A stretch of DNA of 62,688 bases, filler included, from Bipalium vagum (Eukaryota): assembly GCA_037834085.1 (NCBI GenBank). It is 3 parts of 3 records of this genome, joined end to end, with 100 filler letters (N's around TTAATTAATTAA, not from the genome) between each part and the next. Parts side by side here need not be neighbours in the genome. Positions count along the whole stretch, not along the records: positions 46,592 to 62,688 come from JBBMKC010127372.1; 2 more parts are not named here. One strand, 5' to 3'. Below the pieces are notes generated by a model. The model was given only the letters and a program-made list of their open reading frames with translations, searched no databases and was not told the origin of the DNA. A program made the position numbers and the translations under genes. Positions 10,457-62,205 of this stretch are shown here, in pieces; position 1 is the stretch's first letter; the number at the start of each line of letters is the position of its first letter.

Positions 10457-10896
10457 TCAATACAAAGTAAAAGAGTTTAATGGGAATCTGAATTCATATG
10501 CTGATTTAATCTGTTCCTCTTTCTTCTGTGTTATGGAAAATATGCGACCCTTTGGAATATTGGAATTCTTCATAGGATAAGAATCAAGATATGGAAACAT
10601 TGGTAGATCTAGATAATTGGAATTCTGCTCCTCTTGTTTCGGTTTCATCAAACTGGTTGTTCTCTTTACGGGTACTTTATTTAATTTGATGGTTTTGCTG
10701 TAACCTTGATACATTTCCATTCGACGTTGATCTGATATTACTCTCATTGTGTCTCGAATTCTATCGAACTCCCTAACACTATCAATAACCTTTGAGCTAA
10801 GATATCTGGATTTTATGTTAAAGGGTTTCCGCTGATCTGAAAAAAAACTGATGCGACTATTAGTCTTATGGCCATTATGTGGAATATGATTAAAAA

Positions 10897-10941
<45 letters not shown>

Positions 10942-13768
10942 TGTTATTATTACTGGTACTATTATGTGAAAATAGTCTGACATCAACACCCTTTTCTAAA
11001 AGATCAAGCTCGGATCTCATTTTCCTTAATTTAAATCTTGATTCTTCCTTTTCATCTAATTCACCGGTTTTCAAAGCAGTGTTATCGGGAATACCAAAAT
11101 TACCAAAGTTCTCTGATTCTGACGGTCCATCATACAGATTCTTTCTCACTTCAGTTTCTTTTGGATCCTGAATATGGACTATGTTGCCCGTATTATTTCT
11201 CATCTTGTCCTCAAGATCATTACCATTTCTTTTACTGACACTCGTCTTTAAAATCTGGGAAGGGCTGTCTATCTTGTTACTCACAGTTTTGTTATTGTAT
11301 ATTCCTTTTGGAAACTTTTGAGGTTTTGGCATATTATAACCATTGTGAGATTTTTTAGATTCCCTTTTTGTTTCGCTGTCCCCCGGAACAGTCGACTTCT
11401 TCAAAATGTTATCAAGACGTTTTTCATCTGACTTACCTTGAAAACCATTTTGATTACTTTTCGTTTTACTTTCGTTGAATATATCTCTAAGAAGTACCTT
11501 GCTATATAGGTTTTTGGACTTTTTGATACCATTTGGTATGCTGTTTTTATTATTTCTAGGAGACATGGTCTTGGTGTTGCTGGAAGATTTGGATTGTCCT
11601 GAAATGCTGCTTTCAGGGCTCTTTGTGTTTGGAGAGGATTTTAACGGTGATTCTGAGTTTTCCATATTCTCATTAAATAAATCATGTTGAAATTCTTCAT
11701 TCTCAACCAGGGAACTTGAACCTTCGCTACCTTTCAACAAATTGATCGTCTTAGGATCAGTGGCTAAATCTAAAGGCCTCAGATTTGCTTTCACACCAGT
11801 TCCAGTCACTTTTTCATCTGGTTTTGTCAATAAATTTATGTCAGCTCCATACTCGATTAAGAGTTTGCATATTTTGTAGTGATTATTTTTAGATGCTTTA
11901 TGGAGAGGTGAAAAACCATCACAGTTCAAAGAATTAACAAGATGATTTTCATGACATTCGTCCATTCTTTGCAGGATTAGCTCACAAACATCAAGCTTCC
12001 CAGTCTCGGCAGCCTCGTGCAACGGCAAGTCTCCGTTGTTGTTCTTCAAAGTAAGTAGACCACCACTTTTCCTTATGAGATCTAGTATGTCACAATATCC
12101 TTTCAAGGCAGCACAATGAGCCACACTGCGACCTTTGATATCTTGTTTATTAGGATTGCTTCCCTTTTCAAGAAGGAAATTCACAATGGACACAAATCTA
12201 AGAGTAACGGCATAGAAAAGAGGTGTACAAAGATTGTTATCTTCAACCTCGATGGACACCGACCAATTATTTACAGCCAGATCAACAATATCATAATGAC
12301 CACGACTGGCGGCACAGTGCAATATCGACAGGCCATTATTGTCTGAATGGCCTATGTCCGCTCCGTTTTCCAATAAAATCTGACAGCAACTTGTTAACCC
12401 GAGACTTGCTGCCCAGAGCAAAGGAGTTCGATCATCGTAATCAATACAGTTGATATTACATTTGATTTGTAAAAGTTTTTCCAAGATGATTGGACCTTGA
12501 ACAGACCCCTCGGGACTAAGAAAAGACTGGGTAGCGTAATGTAACGGTGACGCTCCGTAATTGTCGACAATCGCCAGAATCTCAGCGTCGGTTTTCAAAA
12601 AGATCCCAATCAAGTCTAAGGAGCAACAGACGACGGCCCAGTGAAGACAGGTGTGGCCATCATTGTCCTTTTCTTTTATATCACAACCGTTGGCAATTAA
12701 GATTTGTACCAACTTGGTGTTGTTGGATATCGTTGCAAGATGCAAAATCGTGAAACCATTGCGATCCTTTTTGCCAATCAACATGGGTTGCAGCTTAATT
12801 AGCTTTTCTGAACATTTCGTATTGGAATTGTCAGCACAATAATGAAGAGGCGTTCTGCGTTCAGTACCATCTACAAGATCGTTCAGTTTCTTCGATATGT
12901 CGGGATCTTTATCAACAAGATCGGATAGTGAAGAAAAATCATCATTCAAACATGCTAATATAATGGGAGAATGGTCGACCTTGTTGTTGGGATTGTTCAG
13001 CGATGATGACAGTATTTCCGCTCCTGAATAATGGGTTAGGATCCGAAGAAAATTGTCCTTCGGGTGATCGCAAACTCTGTCAATGACGCTTTTATCCGTG
13101 TAGTCCTTTATGTCGGACCTGGCTTTGTTTTTTAACAAAATCGTAAAGATTTCTTCATTTTCCACAAACAAAGCGTAATGCAATGCTGTTCTTTTGTATT
13201 TGTTATTCTCTTGAGCGTCAACATTAACGGATAGTTGGATCAACTTTTTCAATGTGTCCACAGCTCCAATCTGGACTGCATAGATCAACGGAGTGGCTCC
13301 ACTCGTTTCTGACGGCATTTCAAAAACGTCGACATTGTTTCCGTAGAGCTTTATCACTTCTAAAGCCATTTGGTCGTTATATCGGATTGCTAAATGTACA
13401 ATGGTCTCTCCGTCCAAATCTTGAACCAGTGGGCTGCAACCCAAGGCAAGACTGGTTGACAAAAGCTCCGGACAATGCAACATTATGCACCAATGGGAAA
13501 TTGTGCGACCCATGTCGTCTTGTGCATTCAAGTCGCTTCCCATTTCAGTTAAAATCTTCAGACAATGCTTATAATCGTCAAGGGTTTTATCTGAACGACC
13601 GATTCCCAACGATTCAAATTTTCGATATGTCTGTACAAGGATCATCATCAAACTAAGACCGTCATCAAATCTGTGACGGACATTAATCTGTTCACAGTTG
13701 TCCAAGAGAATCTTTTCGAATCTGTGAATATCGCCACTGTCTAAAATCTCTTTGGCTGCTAATTCCAT
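10457..13768 (-). CDS. multi-ankyrin-repeat protein (invertebrate inversin-like type) with a low-complexity C-terminal region containing poly-Asn
   Basis: Uninterrupted 1103-codon ORF, GC above background; many ANK repeats (GHTCLHWAVVC, GASPLHYATQ, RTPLLWAASLG, LHCAASRGH, TPLFYAVTL, GDLPLHEAA). Additional terminal exons cannot be excluded. Confidence 0.92.
10899..10955. repeat. (AAT)n microsatellite encoding poly-Asn inside the ankyrin CDS
   Basis: In-frame (ATT)n tract on the plus strand. Confidence 0.9.
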
Positions 13769-14513
13769 GAATTCTCAGAGTGGGAAAAGTCTGAAATGGA
13801 ACTGTAACAATCAGTGCGGATTGTTTTCCACAAAGCGTCTTTTGTCTGGACTGAGACTAGTGAAACAGATTGACAGGTCTTGACAATTGGTTCATTGAAA
13901 CATTCATCGGATTTCTGGAAACGGTGGAAAACGAGAACAATATCAAAGTAAAATGACAATATAAAAAGAGACAATGGGCCAATTAGAATGAGTCTGTTTT
14001 GCCCCTAGAAACCGTTGTTAAGAAAATGGATAAGTTGTTGAACAAATCAGCAAAAGATATACTTTGTATTTGTTCCCAGTATCGACTATAATAACAATAC
14101 TGTTTTCACAATTGGCGGTTGAGACTGGACATTGCTGCTGATGTTACTGGTGAGTTTGCCAGCAGTCAAAGAGATTAGTAGCAGCTTATTTACCTTTAAT
14201 ATACAGAATAAATTGTCAGGGGATAATTTTCTCTCTTCTGTGAAAAATGTTTTATTGAATAGTGAATAATAAAGGCGTTTCGATGTGGGAACAATGGAGG
14301 GAACTGAGATGTCAAATCTTTGATTTGTTTAAATGGAGAAACGAGAACGTTCAGAAGAGGGTGATGAGTCGAAAACGTTGTCTTTCGGAAAATTTTAATG
14401 ATTAGATTTTATAAAATAAAATTAATGTATTTTTGTAGACAATATACATGGGATATATAGAGCGAGAAAGAATTAATATGGGAGTGAAAAAGAACATTTT
14501 TATTATTATATTA

Positions 14514-23065: not shown

Positions 23066-23585
23066 ACAAAATTGAAGAATATTTCTCCACAATCAGCATT
23101 GTAGAATTTGATTGGATTAATAATTCTTTCCAAGATCTATCGAACATTAATCTATGCAACTTTGAGTAATGTGATGTGGAAAAACTAGCAAGTCCTTCAG
23201 TTGATCGGGGACTGAAATTGAGATTGAGCAGATGAATTGAGATTCAAAATTTTAATTTTTGGTTTAATTAGCTATTTAAATTATTTAAAATTTCAAAGAA
23301 ATTTTAGGAAACTATTTTATTAAGAGTAACAATTATTTATTTAAATATGTTTAGATATATTTTAACATTACAATATGAATTTAGGAACTTCTTAAATAAA
23401 TTTATATTGATTTTACTAATGTTTTCATTAAAAATTATGTATATAGAATTAATTGGTTTTTTGAAGAGTAATTTTGAATGTTTCAGAAATATTTCTCTTT
23501 CAATTAAAATTTGTTTTTGTTTAAATAATATTTTGAAACGTGAAATATTTGAGATTTTCATATTATTTCATTTTAATCAAATAAT

Positions 23586-24303
23586 ATGGATTTTAATAAT
23601 ACTTTTAAAAGCTTTGTCACAAATGAAACAAAATGCTTGATTACTTCCTACGGAGAATCGAGCAGTTGTCAGTTTATTGCCAGTCAAGTATCGAATAATC
23701 CAGATCTAAGTTCCGTTGCGATTGTTTGCTTAGAACAACCATCTTCATATTATAAGGAAGCATTGAAGAGCTTGGGAGTTTTTCGTAACATAGATAAAAT
23801 TACTTTCTGGGAATTAAAGGAATTCAATTTTCAAACATCGAACACTGATCTTTTCAATGATATTATGAATTTCTTAAGCAAAGATCACAACAATTCAAAA
23901 TCAATTTATTTTGATAACATTAGCATTTTGTCCTATCTGGGATTGGAAACTAATCATATAATGAAAATTTTCCAATTAATTCTGCGGTTGCCAGAATTTA
24001 TCATTATTGGATGTCACATAAATGAAGACGAAAATGAATTGAGAAAAGCTTTCACATTGATAAAGTATTACTTTCCTTTCGCAATCGACATTAAACCACT
24101 GAAGAGCGGTTACTCTCGATCCCTTGATGGCGAAGTTATTTTTGTTGATTGAATATTTTCCCTTTATTTATTGTTACTAGGTTACCTTTTATGCTAAAGG
24201 ATCCGCCTTTAATCAAATTGTGCCCAACATATATCATTACAGCCTGCAGTACAAAACAATACAACTGTTTTCTTTGGGTACAAGCAAACTGATCTCCAAC
24301 TGA
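23586..24303 (+). CDS. ELP6: Elongator complex protein 6-like; exons 23586-24134 and 24181-24303, 223 aa
   Basis: VCLEQPSSYY, IYFDNISILSYLG and IKPLKSGYSRSLDGE|VTF..YHY..KTIQLFSLGTS match the ELP6 pattern; a 46-nt GT-AG phase-0 intron restores the C-terminus. Confidence 0.8.
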
Positions 24304-26510: not shown

Positions 26511-27500
26511 CAGTGGTTGGCCAAATAATTATGAATACTTAAAAATTTAGCTGATTTTTATGTTTAAGTATTTTTAAAAGATTCTGTGTAAAATAATTAT
26601 TGTTTAAAGATATGTAATGGTGGTTTAAACTCTACACAATAAAATTGTGGTAATTTTAAATATTGAAATTGAATGAGTACGAAATGGTTTTGAACGTTTA
26701 TGTCATTTTAGGGGAATTAAATAACTTCGAAATTTTAAATTACTAGTGAAAAAATTTAATTTTTGATAATAAATGAAGATAAACCTTTTTAATTTAAGGC
26801 GATTACTAATCTATTTTAATATTAATCTGATTAAAGTATTGTTCCAATATATACATATATATATTGATAGCACACGTTATATTTTTATTTTTAAAAAGAT
26901 ATCAATTTTTGAAATGGGAAAATATAAGGATATCTGTCCAATGAAAATCTCGCAATTCCAACTCTTTAGAATAACATCTCTAATTCTCAGAAGCAAATAA
27001 CATCTATAAAAAGTGTTTCGAAATACTTTGGAAACAGGATAAAAAATGACAATAATTCAACTGTGAAGCATCAGCGAACGGGTATATGTGAACGACAGTG
27101 CATCACTGCCCATAGTTCTGACCGCAAAATCAAGCAAACCTTTCTGCAAAACAGAAAATTAAGTACAACTACACTGACAAACATCTTTAACAATGAAGGA
27201 AGTCCTGTCTCAGAAAGAGTTGTTCGTTGGAGATTAGCTGAAGGAAGAATATTATGTCATAGGCTAGTTATCAAGTCAAACTTGACTGTAGCCATGAAGA
27301 AAAATCGCCTGCAATAGGCTCGAACATATGAAAAATGGACTGTAGACAATTGAAATAAAGTAAGAATGTCTTATATTCTATGGTAAAGTTTAAAATTAGA
27401 AATATTTATGTTTAATAGGATTTCTTTTCTGATGTACAAGTTTTCAAATTCTTTCGGTTAAAAAATATCTTCGTACGACTTCATCCAGAGGAGAAGTAAC
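26511..27500 (+). mobile_element. Tc1-like transposon, 5' portion, with a 59-nt intron at 27360-27418
   Basis: TA|CAGTGGTTGGCCAAAT end; MGKYKDI start; VSERVVRWRL..LTVAMKKNRL..WTVDN*NK|DFFSD; GTAAGA...TAG intron just before the first catalytic D. Confidence 0.8.
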
Positions 27501-28120
27501 ACCCCCATTTCGTCTTAGAAGTCATCTCATTTCTGGTATGATTGTATTCACGGTGACTGTTCTCTTCAGCTGACTTTCTCAAGATTCAGATTGTCGTTCG
27601 CATTGTCATGATATCCATTTGATTATCAGAGGGTCTGAATTAAATACGATGTTGGCATGAAGATCAGCTTTAAACATTTACTTCTACTAATATACCGAAT
27701 TAATCCTATTTTTTACCTGGTACACGCATTTAGGCCACCAAACGTGGAGCAGTGTTAAGATGAAAGCGAATTTCACGACACCACTTTTATTAAGTATTAA
27801 TGAAAAAGTAATTTCGTTTTCTTTTTCTGGAAGAGGGAGAGATTTTACTAGAATTTTCAAATTGAAAAAAAATATAAAATAAAAATTTTCCTAACTGTAA
27901 CTGTAAAACATGTACATTTACAATATATAAAATAATCTCTTGATTATTAAATTATTAAATAATAATTAAAATTAAAACTAAAATAATATTAATTGTAAAT
28001 AAATAAATAATAATAATAATAATAAAATAATAGAAAAATAATTCAATTAATTTAATATTAATTAAATATATAAATATAAATTAAATTAAATTTACTATTC
28101 ATTTATATATATATATAATA

Positions 28121-28720
28121 CACACCTGGACAAAAAAATTGAGGCTTACATAATTTATATTATACATTATGAGAACATTTATTTTAACAATTTTACAGCA
28201 ATTTTATAAAAATTTTCAAGCAATATATCATTAACTAAATAAGAAATATTAATAAGGGATATATTTCCATTTAGCCAATTTAAGCAACTTGAGCCTTTTG
28301 GGTAGGCTATATGATAGTCTCTGACAATGTTCTGTATTATAATGATTTTCCATTCTTTCTCGACTGCTTTCCACAGTTGGTCAGGAGTATTGAAAATCTT
28401 CCCGGCTAGTTTTGCCTTTATGTTTGCCCATATATTCCCAATGGGATTAAGATCTGGCGATTGTCCAGACCTATACATAACCGGTATACCTTTTTTCTTC
28501 AACCATGCTTTTGTTGTTTTTCCGTGCATAACCTCTCGATGCTTGGAAGCAACCAAATATCTAATATCCTTTGGTACTTTTTGGCATTAATTGACCCAGT
28601 ACATCCTATAAGCTCACCAACTCCAGATGCTGGGAATATTCCCCAAACCATAATTCTTTTTACAGAACCTGTTGTCTTGAACTGGTAGCGGACTATAATT
28701 CTCAGTCGACTAAATTTTAT
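28121..28720 (-). mobile_element. Tc1-like transposon, 3' portion
   Basis: IMVWG..SGVG and GQSPDLNPIGNIW motifs; TA|CACACCTGGACAAAAAAATTG end. Confidence 0.85.
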
Positions 28721-57084: not shown

Positions 57085-57475
57085 TGCGAAGCCATTAAAT
57101 TCTTCCTCGGTTGATCCTCTAAAAGAATCCCTTTTATTTTATTATTTTTATTTTATTTTATTTTTTTAAATGATACAATGTGAGCTTTATAAAAATCGCT
57201 TTTGATGCAGTCAACTGTCACCTCATTCCACGAGTCAACAATCCATTGGCAAATCTCACTAGATGACCTTCTTTTCATTGCTCCACTTTTTGTAAATGAA
57301 TGAGTTTCATCTGACATCCATCTACTCCACCTTCCACGCAATTTTGATTTTTTATAAGAGCGATTCACTGAAATATCCAAAGTATGTAAAACTTTGTTCT
57401 TAACTTCATCAGTTAGATGAACTTTAGCATAATCAAGAATAAGAAAAGACTCAGAGCTAGCCCATTTCGCCTCAT
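57085..57475 (-). mobile_element. pogo/Tigger-type (DDE_1) transposase C-terminal fragment
   Basis: FLILDYAKVHLT..LDISVNRSYK..W..TKSGAMKR..ICQWIVDSWNEV. Confidence 0.82.
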
Positions 57476-58594
57476 GGCATTTATAGATTTAGTATGTCAT
57501 TGTTTTTTAATTTATTTTTAAAATTTTTGTGGTTTAATAAACATTTTTGCGTCACGTTCTTCTTTTGTCTTTCTATACTCTTTTGTTATAAATGCCTCAA
57601 ACCGCCTTTCTTAGTCAAGCTTAGTGATTTTATTTCTTTAGAAGCAAAAACAATATTTTGGAAAGTACTTTTTATTTTGAGCTCTTTCCCTGAGCATTAA
57701 TTCCCTAATTACAACTGGACCCCACACTGATTGAATAGATCTCTGAAAAACTACACCCTAAGATACTTTATTGAAAGACTCTATTCCATATTATTGATAC
57801 TTGTAACGACTAATTTCTCATCGTCTCATTGCAGGAAAATGCAAAGTAGTTTTCATGGTTTTCCATAATGATGGAATTGTGAAGATAAAATACATTTGTC
57901 AACCTTTCAATCAACTCTTGGGTTTTTTAAAGTTTCAACATATTTATATGGTTTCTCAGGTTTGGATAAACTTATAATAATTATAAATGGAAAACTGATA
58001 AAGAAAAAAGTTCAAAAAGACTTGCGTTTTGAACTGTTATAAATTCAGGACATATATTAATTTAAGAAATGCTGAAACAGTCCAAACCTATCAATTTGAT
58101 AGAGTGCTTTTGAACTACAACAGTACGAAAAAAAATTATTCCTGCTCCTTTAATTACACTAATAGTTAAAAGTGTATAAATTTATTTATGGTCCTTGAGC
58201 TTTTTCACAATGTCCAAGATACCTGTTATATAAATATTGATTGTTCTAAATCAGATATTGTAAAATATATTGATATTAGTTTGAATAAATCGGAAATTAA
58301 TTGACAAGAGAGATTATTCCCGCACCACATTTAAATTTCAAATTGTTTAATATACTCATCGTCAAAAGTCTTAGGCAGGTAAAATTTATTAAATAGTGAT
58401 AATAATAAAATATAATATATGATAATAAAGATAATATTTGATGAGTTAATATAATTTCTGTTAAGCACATGAATAAAAAGTAATTTATTTTAGAATAATT
58501 AACCAATTTATATGAAATATATATTTCGTGTGTTTTGGTTTTTTAATTTTTTTTTAGGAGTTTTTTATCTATTACTTTCGGAGACTACAACCAA

Positions 58595-58951
58595 AGAGAA
58601 TGCAAAATCTGGTTCATGGAAACATTTTCGAAAAAGAAATCGATTTTGGATATTATTTTGGAACTGGCATTCTCTTCAAGCAGAATGCAGATGAAAGATT
58701 TGCAACCTTTGAAATTCGAGTCCGTAAGCTGTTGAACAATGTACTGTTTTACAATAGATTCAAATTTATCCAGAGAAGAAATATTGACAGATTGCCTTGC
58801 CAAGTGAGCTAAGAGTCTTTGGCTCAAGAAAGTATTAATCACAAGGCCCAATACTGAAGTGCAGGATATTATGGAATTGGATAAACTGCTTGACCATTTT
58901 AAAATACACTGCCGCTGAAGAATAGACGTCTTATTTTTGGGCAACAAGAGC
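58595..58951 (+). mobile_element. decayed rve-type integrase fragment (continues at 60492-60510), interrupted by composite copy 2
   Basis: PCQ, LDHF and LPLKN pieces; reading across one TSD copy gives LIFGQQEHLFHS (FGxPxxLHSD-like). Confidence 0.45.
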
Positions 58952-58970
58952 TGTTAGTTGAAAATTGATT

Positions 58971-58983
58971 CCGGGATTCGAAC
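58971..58983 (-). pseudogene. 3' part of tRNA-like sequence (B-box/T-arm), copy 2; acceptor strand deleted
   Basis: Minus strand GTTCGAAT-CCCGG. Confidence 0.7.
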
Positions 58984-60410
58984 GTACAAAATTTTATTTT
59001 AAAAACAAGTTTTTCTTTCACGAACTTAATCTTTTTCACATAAGTGTGCACCTATTATGGCTTTGCTTCATCTTCATTTTGGAGCAGATTATCATCGCAG
59101 TCGTTGAGATTTTTAGCAGCATCATCAGAATGGTATTGACTTTGGTCGTTATTGAGATTTCCATCTTCAATTTCGTTGATATCGGAAAAATTTACTGATT
59201 TTTTTCTAACATCTCTGTGAAATTTCCATTGCGCGCACTTCATTTGATATTAGACGCCACGCAGAATTTTGACATTTAGAAAATTGCAGACTTCTCAGAA
59301 TTTCCTCATTTCGCTTTTGCCATGATCCATGGCAGCTGACTGCGAACGTATTTAACGAACAGTCCAATCTGGCAGGGCTTTCTTGGTCTGGTCGAGAAGA
59401 TCTTGGTAGTGGATGAGATTCTTCTCGTGGTTCCAGTATGTGTTTTTCTCTGTATCATACGGACATTTGATGTCAATAAGACACAGGACTTTGCTTTCCG
59501 TGAACTGAATAAGAAGGTCAACACGTTTTGTTGAATTGACGTATTGACTTTCAGCGTTGACAAAGACTTTGGCCTTTGAATTTTCTTTAATTTGTTTGGC
59601 CAGATAATCTTGGATCGAATTATGTCGACAGTTTTGAAATATTTTGAATGGAATGCAATTAACAAGAACATGAGACAACATGACAACATGAAACAACAAC
59701 ATGAGACGATCATTGATCTGAATTGAGTAAGATTGAGCTTGGTGAATGAAATACCAAGATGTGATTGATATTTCATCGTTGAAGATTGGAGTTGTCGATA
59801 ATGTTGATTGGCTAGTTGCCGATGCAAAGCGATCTACACTTGCTTGGCTGTTCCAGCTGTAATTCCAAGCATGATTGATTAGATTGTGAAGCTTTTTCGA
59901 AACAATATTTGCATCAATTGGATTCAAAATTGCTTTATTCTCATAACTTGGATCCAAATGTTGAAAGACTTTCAGACAGATTCGTCTTCATTGCGCTCGA
60001 ATTTGACATTGATCTTGTGTCTGGATTGCATTTGATGATTGCAGATCGAGTCTTCCTCCACCAACAATTTTGAAGACATTGAATGTCACCACGATTAAGC
60101 CATACAAAAGCTTGATCGAGGGAAACTCGATTAGAAAGACCAGGATTTGATGCTGCACCAATTAACGAAGAGATTGCCGTATCTCAAATAATTTCACCTG
60201 GTGAGTTAAAGAGCTGAAATACATTTGTAATTGACTGAACCAGATATTCGTACATGTACTTAATGGAAGAATGACTTTCAAGACCAATTATACTTTTCAA
60301 GAGACGTTGAATATTTAGTTCAATGGCATTGAATCCTTGTGTCATCTCATTGAACGTAATGTAATTATTCCGAAAAGCAAAAATCATTCGCGAATGAATA
60401 AAAGTGTAAT
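58984..60410 (-). mobile_element. 5'-truncated non-LTR retrotransposon (R2/NeSL-type RLE), copy 2, pseudogenised
   Basis: Post-RT segment TFIHSRMIFAFRN, WYFIHQA, SHVLVNC..RHNSIQDYL..KRVDLL..LIDIKCPYD..KNLIHYQDL; ends AATAAAATTTTGTAC. Confidence 0.9.
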
Positions 60411-60461
60411 AGGGACCCTTCACATGCGCATGGACTGTTCTGATCGCTGAGCTACATCCTC
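60411..60461 (-). pseudogene. 5' part of tRNA-Ala(CGC)-like sequence, copy 2
   Basis: Minus strand GAGGATG-TA-GCTC-AGCGATCA-GAAC-A-GTCCA-TGCGCAT-GTGAA-GGGTC-CCT. Confidence 0.78.
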
Positions 60462-60739
60462 TGACTAATTTTCAATTTATCTCACAAGAGCATTTATTCC
60501 ACTCTTGTCATTTGTTGGGAACTACTACTACAACGCGGTTCGGTGATGTGTATACACAAGGAAAAAGATGATACAAACCAACATGAAAGTCATTATGAGG
60601 ATCTTGAGGAAAAAAATCAAATGGGCTCTCTTGCTTTCATTTCGTCTGTGGGGACAAGTCATTGAGCTCTTCAGAAAAACGGAATGCAAAAGATGTGACT
60701 TTTATGAAGGATGCTGAAATTTTCAGGACAGGTGACAAT

Positions 60740-62205
60740 AGATGGAGTTAAGTTCCAGATACTGTGGGACTCAGAGGAGTCAGTCACCTTGCTTAATTAG
60801 ATATGCTGGAAAAGATTAGGTATTCTTTTGTGGGTAGTGAAAGGCCTTTAGGATCATACAAGGCTGGAATTGCGTGGAATCACAAGGTCAAGCAGATTGA
60901 GATTATGATAGTAAGGCGACTTCAGCCAAATTTTATTGGAGGAGTGGATATGATGAGGAAATCTTGGATTGAACTACGTGAAGTGAACAAGATTGAAGAG
61001 AAATTTTGGCAAGAACATTTCAGATACACACAGGAAAAATTATGCAACGCAATTCTTCCAAGATTTACACAATATGTGGTTATAAATATGTTGCACAAAA
61101 CGGGAATATCTTTATGATGCCGACCTTTGACATAGGTTTTACAGATTTGGTCCAATATGAGATCAACGTAAGAGAAAAACTGATTTTGCAACAACCAAAA
61201 AGACAACCCAAACATTTAGATAACAAAATTGACGATATGGTTTTGAATCTGGTTGCGGCTGGGGTGGTATCTAAATGTAAAAGCCCATGGAGTTCACTGT
61301 TAGTAGTGGTTGCTAAAAAAGATGGATCAATTCGACTGTGTGTTGACTTCAGAAACACTGCTTCCCAATACGAGACACACAGACGCTATTGGACTTCCTG
61401 GCTGATTCAAAATATTTTTCTTCATTAGATCAAGTGGATTTCTCAAAAAAAATTTAGATTGATTACTGCTTTCAGCATGAGACAGGACAAGTTCTGTTTC
61501 AACCGCATGCCATTTTGGCTGGCAACGGAGAAAACAACTTTTAGAAGCTGTTGCATGAACTCCTGGATAACGTCTTGTTCAAAGGGGTCTTTGTATACCT
61601 CGATAAAATATTAATTTATAGTCCAAATGAAAAGTAGCACAATGATCTTTTGGAGGAGGTTCTCAGAAGAATATCTAATTCCGGTTTAAAATAAAGTGCA
61701 GATTCGATCAGAACGAACTCGTCTTCTTGGGACACTGTAAGTGCAAGTGGGATTAGAGCCAATCAAAAGAAAGTGGATGAAATTTTGAATGCCAAACCTC
61801 CCGGATGTGCGTCCCACCTGAGAGCTTTCTTAGGACTAACGAATTAATATAGAGGTTTCACTGACAAATTCGCAGTGATAGCAGCACCACTATACGTAAC
61901 TATCTCTGGGGACGAGAAGAAAATACAGTGGACGGAACAATACCAATTTAGTTTTCAGGAATTAAAAAAATTTATGCACAGTACCAATATTGGATTTCCC
62001 TCAGAAGAATAGTATCTTTATTTTGGAAACGAACGCAGGTTTTTGAGTCATTGGCACCGTTCTGAGCCAAACCAAAGAGGAATGCACGGAGACGGTTATT
62101 ACATACGGTTAACGACATTTATCAACCCATGAATTTGGTTATTGCTGGAGAAAGGAGTTGTTGGCGTTATACGAGTTTGTTTTACATTTTAAACAATACT
62201 TACAT
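60740..62205 (+). mobile_element. Ty3/gypsy pol remnant (protease, RT, RNase H)
   Basis: LWDS (protease-like), SPWSS..VVAKKDGSIRLCVDFR, RMPF, VYLDKILIYS, VFLGH, LRAFLGLTN, KELLAL; many stops and frameshifts. Confidence 0.9.

Follow-up and report, generated by a model that had tools for sequence, protein, structure and literature searches.

Introduction

Helenus elements (TRIMp3) are TRIMs that carry tRNA-like sequence inside LTRs bounded by TG and CA (Kojima 2024, PMC10886601). In the available text of that survey, their LTRs can be as short as 104-125 bp, many copies survive as solo LTRs with duplications, and the duplications measure 4 bp in animal families and 5 bp in fungal and plant families (Table S1). 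Cassandra and Ajax likewise hold a Pol III promoter derived from a small RNA within the LTR, and Ajax is found in an animal (a nemertean) and makes 5-bp duplications (PMC10886601). Among flatworms, ta-TRIM of taeniid cestodes has TG..CA LTRs, many of them solo, and in Taenia it makes 5-bp duplications (8/8 and 2/2; Koziol 2015, PMC4558846). Genes for tRNAs are also targets of RLE-type LINEs, as described for NeSL-1_TV, LIN15_SM, LIN25_SM and LIN26_SM (Kojima and Jurka 2015, PMC4640811, S6 Fig.).

Here we analyze a 62,688-nt stretch of DNA (the window, filler included, about 27% G+C) from Bipalium vagum. An initial annotation had proposed that a LINE in this window entered a target that is itself mobile, a unit of about 116 bp with TGT...ACA ends and a tRNA-like core, spread by an integrase. 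Two units of about 115 bp were confirmed, and their TG..CA ends and fixed 5-bp duplication bear out integrase-type mobility. Like small Helenus LTRs, the unit combines this size and orientation with a sense tRNA-like sequence, conserved A and B boxes and a following T-run, and Helenus sequences, as described, usually give no functional tRNA (PMC10886601). The novelty claimed for a tRNA-bearing analogue of Cassandra was therefore overstated, as such elements had already been published as Helenus.

The unit departs from the described animal Helenus lineages in duplication length, which is 5 bp in this animal element and 4 bp in theirs; furthermore, Table S1 of the survey has no flatworm, its available text reports no LINE targeting of Helenus, and three longer motifs of the unit do not occur among the published consensus sequences (PMC10886601). 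Some rust-fungus Helenus LTRs of about 111 bp begin with the same eight letters as copy 1, a likeness that may be convergence (PMC10886601). Cassandra and Ajax differ in being derived from 5S rRNA and not from tRNA (PMC10886601). The ta-TRIM LTR is longer, at 198 bp, was not found in planarians and is described, in the text available, with no mention of a tRNA-like core (PMC4558846). The literature searched held no flatworm Helenus and no LINE that targets a TRIM; Repbase may already hold the unit.

Results and Discussion

Two tRNA-like units are bounded by exact 5-bp duplications

Both copies of the unit lie on the minus strand and both are interrupted by a LINE, so that each is read as two parts on either side of the insert. 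The features are as follows.

38907-38911, no strand: left TSD of copy 1, AAGAT, 5-bp
38912..38929, minus strand: trailer of copy 1, 18 nt, with the ACA end
38930..38950, minus strand: tRNA-like 3' part of copy 1, with a mutated B box, T-stem and acceptor 3' strand
38951..40131, minus strand: LINE insert of copy 1, 5'-truncated, shorter than that of copy 2 and of the same family
40132..40181, minus strand: tRNA-like 5' part of copy 1, 50 nt
40182..40206, minus strand: leader of copy 1, 25 nt, with the TGT start
40207-40211, no strand: right TSD of copy 1, AAGAT, 5-bp
58947-58951, no strand: left TSD of copy 2, AGAGC, 5-bp
58952..58969, minus strand: trailer of copy 2, 18 nt, with a T4 run and the ACA end (putative LTR 3' end)
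58970..58983, minus strand: tRNA-like 3' remnant of copy 2 (B box / T-arm), with an acceptor 3' strand that is 7 nt short
58984..60411, minus strand: LINE insert of copy 2, R2-superfamily (probably NeSL/LIN-like), 5'-truncated and decayed; in order, the RT end, zinc-knuckle region, restriction-like endonuclease motif and AT-rich 3' tail
60412..60461, minus strand: tRNA-like 5' part of copy 2, with the A-box region, D-arm, imperfect anticodon arm and nt 1-2 of the T-stem
60462..60486, minus strand: leader of copy 2, 25 nt, with the TGT start (putative LTR 5' end)
60487-60491, no strand: right TSD of copy 2, AGAGC, 5-bp
60492..62200 (end approximate), plus strand: decayed Ty3/Gypsy internal region that hosts copy 2

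The layout proposed in the initial annotation, a 25-nt leader from TGT and an 18-nt trailer to ACA, was present in both copies, and each copy had its own perfect and differing duplication. When repeat lengths of 2-10 were tried, the direct repeats around both copies matched at length 5 alone. An exact 5-bp duplication would arise by chance with a probability of 0.0024-0.0028 in a single copy and of about 6e-6 in the two together. The units themselves are similar (62/75 identical positions in the 5' halves and 28/33 in the 3' halves), whereas the two 60-nt flanks, compared between the copies, matched at 20/60 and 16/60 positions, with about 18 expected. Because similarity ends at the termini, the two copies are not a segmental duplication, the outcome that had been named as refuting a mobile unit.

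Copy 2 interrupts the decayed Ty3/Gypsy region, which further marks it as an insertion. The Ty3 RT match (E 1.4e-6) falls in the piece at 60997-61425, and the likely gag-side part split off by copy 2 lies at about 58585-58946. The gag-protease-RT region as a whole (58585-62200, plus strand) has other family members in a public sequencing run, X1. Among the contig joints, two that span the Gypsy flanks (58804-60538 and 58817-60484) were left uncounted, as neither is a precise empty site.

BLAST, fuzzy-motif and nhmmer searches of the window turned up no third unit. An empty unit was likewise absent from the window, where nhmmer recovered just the two 5' halves.

The core is tRNA-like, not a valid tRNA, in the decayed window copies

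ARAGORN gave 0 hits on the raw window. With the LINE excised in trial joints, default settings called a tRNA in 0/780 excisions for copy 1 and 0/840 for copy 2, both of which are decayed; at a 90% threshold, 13/780 excisions of copy 1 were called, all as Ala-CGC, and 0/840 of copy 2. The window had no Rfam match at E<=1, and the tRNA-like halves are split there. By eye, both copies have a G in place of the expected U33, along with a mismatched anticodon stem. The description of the unit as spreading tRNA cassettes was thus too strong, as the core fails to score as a tRNA.

A strict A-box pattern was matched by neither window copy. In contigs of run X1 (described below), the alleles that prevail at 60444 and 60438 bring back the A-box GG and the D-stem; the commonest 60444 allele yields the Helenus A-box motif (TRGCY..YGG), and the B box (GGTTC) is intact in empty units. 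The contig majority therefore has the A and B boxes of Helenus, whereas each window copy is degenerate. Since the A-box alleles are restored and the B box is kept in the empties, the promoter boxes are better kept than the fold, and the same is described for Helenus (PMC10886601, available text).

Contigs reveal a dispersed family with a sharp shared end

Contigs of the single public run X1 were compared with positions 58772-60631 at 80% likeness, which placed 2454 of 1,835,864 records. At least 315 contigs depart from the window sequence at the TG terminus (44 at 60484, 158 at 60486 and 113 at 60487), and beyond it the flank agreement in those three rows is just 0.43-0.46, indicating varied flanks; these loose-end figures come from the 6 of 341 rows listed, none of which is at the CA end. 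On the other side of the LINE target, at least 127 contigs (55 at 60417 and 72 at 60419) enter an intact T-arm and acceptor strand, not the LINE. These contigs would be empty units, apart from any true tRNA genes among them. In one contig an empty unit was complete, with 58969 joined to 60417 via 27 letters, so that 18+27+70 gives 115 nt. Contigs also carry seven letters put in at 58966, as against the acceptor-strand gap of copy 2.

All contig counts come from one run and may include alleles, and true tRNA genes could account for some of the T-arm contigs. The family nevertheless has many dispersed copies that share a sharp end, which answers the copy-number check proposed in the initial annotation, with the TSDs being those read in the window copies. 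Both window units are LINE-filled, although empty units look commoner in the contigs, which counts against the reading proposed below. The summed depth of the tRNA-like half was about 66 times the LINE median, a figure inflated by short overlapping contigs; it was rejected as a copy ratio because of this overlap and because true tRNA genes may add to it.

In the 60417 and 60419 contigs the 3' strand of the acceptor stem varies, and its variants appear complementary to the differing 5' strands of copy 1 and copy 2 (60412-60486), hinting at compensatory change in what may be a hairpin.

The unit is probably a solo LTR of a Helenus-type TRIM

We consider it likely that the unit of about 115 bp is a solo LTR of a Helenus-type TRIM, a very small LTR retrotransposon without coding capacity whose LTRs contain a Pol III promoter derived from tRNA. 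Supporting this is its layout, in which TG, a short leader, a sense tRNA-like core, a T-run and CA follow one another. A further indication comes from the sequence just outside the TG terminus. Past 60486 the majority letters of the contigs are C-rich; read on the tRNA strand, 10 of 12 are purines, five of them G, and the tract abuts TG. This purine tract is read from the majority letters of a single row in one run, and we estimate it to be common to about 20-30% of the 158 contigs that depart exactly at the terminus. The majority letters of two neighboring loose-end rows were pure A/T. When 2000 sets were simulated, each of 158 flanks drawn at random from the window, none had a G/C majority letter at positions 2-12, whereas a simulated flank common to 25-30% of contigs reproduced both the C-rich pattern and the agreement of 0.43. 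Such purine-rich 12-mers make up 548 of 124,720 in the window; the tract itself had no exact match there and two hits with one mismatch, neither at an LTR-like site. A purine tract in this position is as a polypurine tract ahead of a 3' LTR would give, or it could instead flank a single composite that was amplified.

Paired LTRs, an internal region and a PBS were not among the 6 of 341 loose-end rows listed, none of these being at the CA end. Duplication length counts against a Helenus-type TRIM, as published animal Helenus of determined length all have 4-bp duplications in the available text (PMC10886601); a length of 5 bp does fit a flatworm TRIM, given the 5-bp duplications of ta-TRIM in Taenia described in the accessible account (PMC4558846).

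The initial annotation had offered a solo LTR or a Ginger-type MITE; the first option gained from the polypurine-like tract in a subgroup of contigs, and the second fits poorly. We regard it as unlikely that the unit is a MITE, of Ginger2/TDD-like or other integrase-type cut-and-paste origin, that captured a tRNA-like sequence. TGTNR ends are common to Ginger and Gypsy, and within the Ginger2-TDD group, which uses an integrase-type enzyme, TDD-4/5 make 5-bp duplications (Bao 2010, PMC2836005, available text). The leader and trailer are also partly complementary and together with the acceptor stem make up a long hairpin, which leans slightly towards a MITE. This inverted repeat is short, however, with about 19 imperfect bases and a 5-nt bulge, and marginal: with TGT held fixed, 291 and 1346 of 20,000 shuffles reached its score (p 0.015 and 0.07). 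Animal Ginger1 and Ginger2 are described with 4-bp duplications, a preference for CCGG or RTATAY and inverted repeats of 40-270 bp (PMC2836005, available text), and the unit shares none of these: its ends hold no Ginger-type TIR of about 40 bp or more, and its sites, AAGAT and AGAGC, are neither 4 bp long nor of the preferred kind. A purine tract common at one end is also not expected of a MITE.

The unit might instead be a solo LTR left by a longer and possibly autonomous LTR retrotransposon whose LTR is tRNA-derived, but this seems to us improbable. Such an element would be expected to have these termini, this duplication and a PPT-like tract as well. However, none appears in the Helenus survey, as far as its available text extends, and autonomous partners are argued there to need Pol II promoters (PMC10886601), for which a 115-bp LTR full of tRNA-like core leaves little room. 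The purine tract, moreover, is without an exact match in the window.

A restriction-like-endonuclease LINE lies in both units at the same B-box base

The LINE copies in copy 1 and copy 2 are 82% identical. A HMMER search found 45 LINE relatives, and of the seven scanned all had an RT (RVT_1), five a zf-RVT domain and three a Ulp1 protease (Peptidase_C48), which many NeSL/LIN members carry at the N terminus. The endonuclease-motif residues H/C/RH and D..D.K were invariant in eight sequences, and the nearest solved structures (PDB) for one LINE relative, P0123, were R2 proteins. An RT followed by a zinc knuckle and a restriction-like endonuclease is the arrangement of R2-superfamily RLE LINEs, and the insert is the 3' part of such a LINE. 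It is probably NeSL/LIN-like, the window copies being without the 5' part, where Ulp1 would lie. Word-index protein searches with the LINE and with an ELP6-like ORF of the window (see below) returned none. Between the window LINE copies, dN/dS was about 0.5, as compared with 1.01 and 0.83 in shifted frames (Fisher p 0.0003), as calculated without transition correction and with a modest third-position excess (p 0.02-0.04).

The 3' junction of the LINE lies at the same B-box base in both copies, while the 5' truncations differ. In copy 1 the 5' junction has 4-5 nt of microhomology with the tRNA-like part. At least four further junctions were found among the 12 contig rows listed, with truncations at 59014, 59066, 59806 and 59810 joined to 60412-60415; the host site at these four may be this unit or true tRNA genes. 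With the target side fixed and the LINE side variable, the junctions are as repeated target-primed insertion would leave them.

Each ingredient has precedent in the available text on tRNA-targeting LINEs, in which entry into a tRNA T-arm and into a tRNA-like sequence of a Polinton are both described (PMC4640811). The T-arm of tRNA-Pro is the target of NeSL-1_TV, which inserts there at a position close to that of the window LINE and leaves a small deletion. Besides tRNA genes, LIN25_SM targets a tRNA-like sequence that lies within Polinton-4_SM (PMC4640811). LIN15 and LIN25 differ in cutting the D-arm and 5' end of tRNA-Arg and tRNA-Glu, whereas the cut here is in the B box; the 3' tail of the planarian LIN26_SM resembles that of the window LINE, by eye (PMC4640811), which makes a triclad flatworm host likely.

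We also considered that the whole composite of unit and LINE, 1.3-1.5 kb, is mobile, having been made once and then copied, with copy 1 as a deletion derivative. Both window copies are filled, the microhomology of 4-5 nt at the 5' junction of copy 1 is compatible with a deletion, and the LINE and the unit have diverged similarly (82% and 83-85% identity). Empty units exist, however, the four additional LINE truncation points all meet one target position, and there is purifying selection between the LINE copies, which together make a mobile composite very improbable. Two further candidates, an ordinary tRNA gene and a tRNA-SINE, either of them with duplications that arose by chance, are effectively refuted: despite the tRNA-like core and the targeting of true tRNA genes by planarian LINEs (PMC4640811, available text), exact 5-bp duplications occur twice (about 6e-6), at least 315 contigs have a common terminus, the core has no valid tRNA fold, and, as the initial annotation had argued against an ordinary SINE, the unit has a fixed CA end and a fixed 5-bp duplication with no A-rich or repeat tail.

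Proposed history of the unit and its LINE

As a Helenus-type TRIM, the element would be transcribed by Pol III from the A and B boxes of its tRNA-like core across LTR, internal region and LTR (this activity is putative), and RT and integrase would be supplied in trans by an autonomous LTR retrotransposon. The 5-bp length of the duplication suggests an integrase of the Copia, BEL or 5-bp Gypsy kind. Integration left a 5-bp duplication at each of the two sites, and recombination between LTRs may then have left a single LTR between two duplications, the state seen twice in the window. An RLE LINE now sits at the identical B-box base of both copies with different 5' truncations; it would have arrived independently in each by target-primed reverse transcription that deleted a few target bases, presumably because the unit mimics the tRNA T-arm target.

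A Helenus-type identity would extend tRNA-promoter TRIMs to another animal group, probably flatworms, and the 5-bp length would imply a helper integrase unlike that of other animal Helenus. Present in the hundreds, units of this kind can inflate the count of tRNA genes and spread Pol III boxes across a genome. A LINE inside a mobile tRNA mimic also provides a testable case of target-specific retrotransposons escaping a limited and essential target set, with the mimic acting either as a decoy that spares real tRNA genes or as the main LINE target. Tentatively, the LINE may have left host tRNA genes and specialized on the mobile tRNA-like LTR of a Pol III TRIM with a Copia/BEL-type helper, a possibility that we still hold doubtful. 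If this specialization is true, the TRIM would seed hundreds of harmless, fresh landing sites for the LINE, while itself being parasitic on a helper that makes 5-bp duplications in an animal.

Other searches and features of the window

Prokaryote genome contigs gave 0 matches, and among viral contigs 0/67 candidates were LINE relatives. A motif scan of metagenome contigs yielded three loci, but all of them represent a single bacterial tRNA-Thr region; BLAST found no similarity between it and the window, and the loci were set aside as chance. In one of them (L001, 1278-1587) a bacterial tRNA-Thr(CGT) follows tandem repeats of 78 bp, every one of which takes in the first bases of the tRNA; the number of repeats in L001 differs from that in L002 and L003, and the arrangement is unrelated to the unit.

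Identical N runs around a short palindrome, at 29282-29393 and in opposite orientation at 46490-46601, are an assembly artefact. The window also contains decayed DNA-transposon pieces at 26970-28586, 47661-48167 and 57153-57488, which are Tc1-like (HTH_Tnp_Tc3_2, DDE_3), mariner (HTH_48) and pogo-like (DDE_1). An ORF at 29344-30480 (plus strand), which starts in an assembly gap, resembles a seven-transmembrane receptor by eye, and the ELP6-like ORF (Elongator subunit 6) lies at 23577-24152 (plus strand). Together with the ankyrin gene described next, the ELP6-like gene marks the host as an animal. Finally, an intronless ankyrin-repeat ORF of 1105 aa occupies 10457-13774 on the minus strand; its best match was a 1110-aa protein, at 50% over the full length, followed by scallop proteins at 35%.
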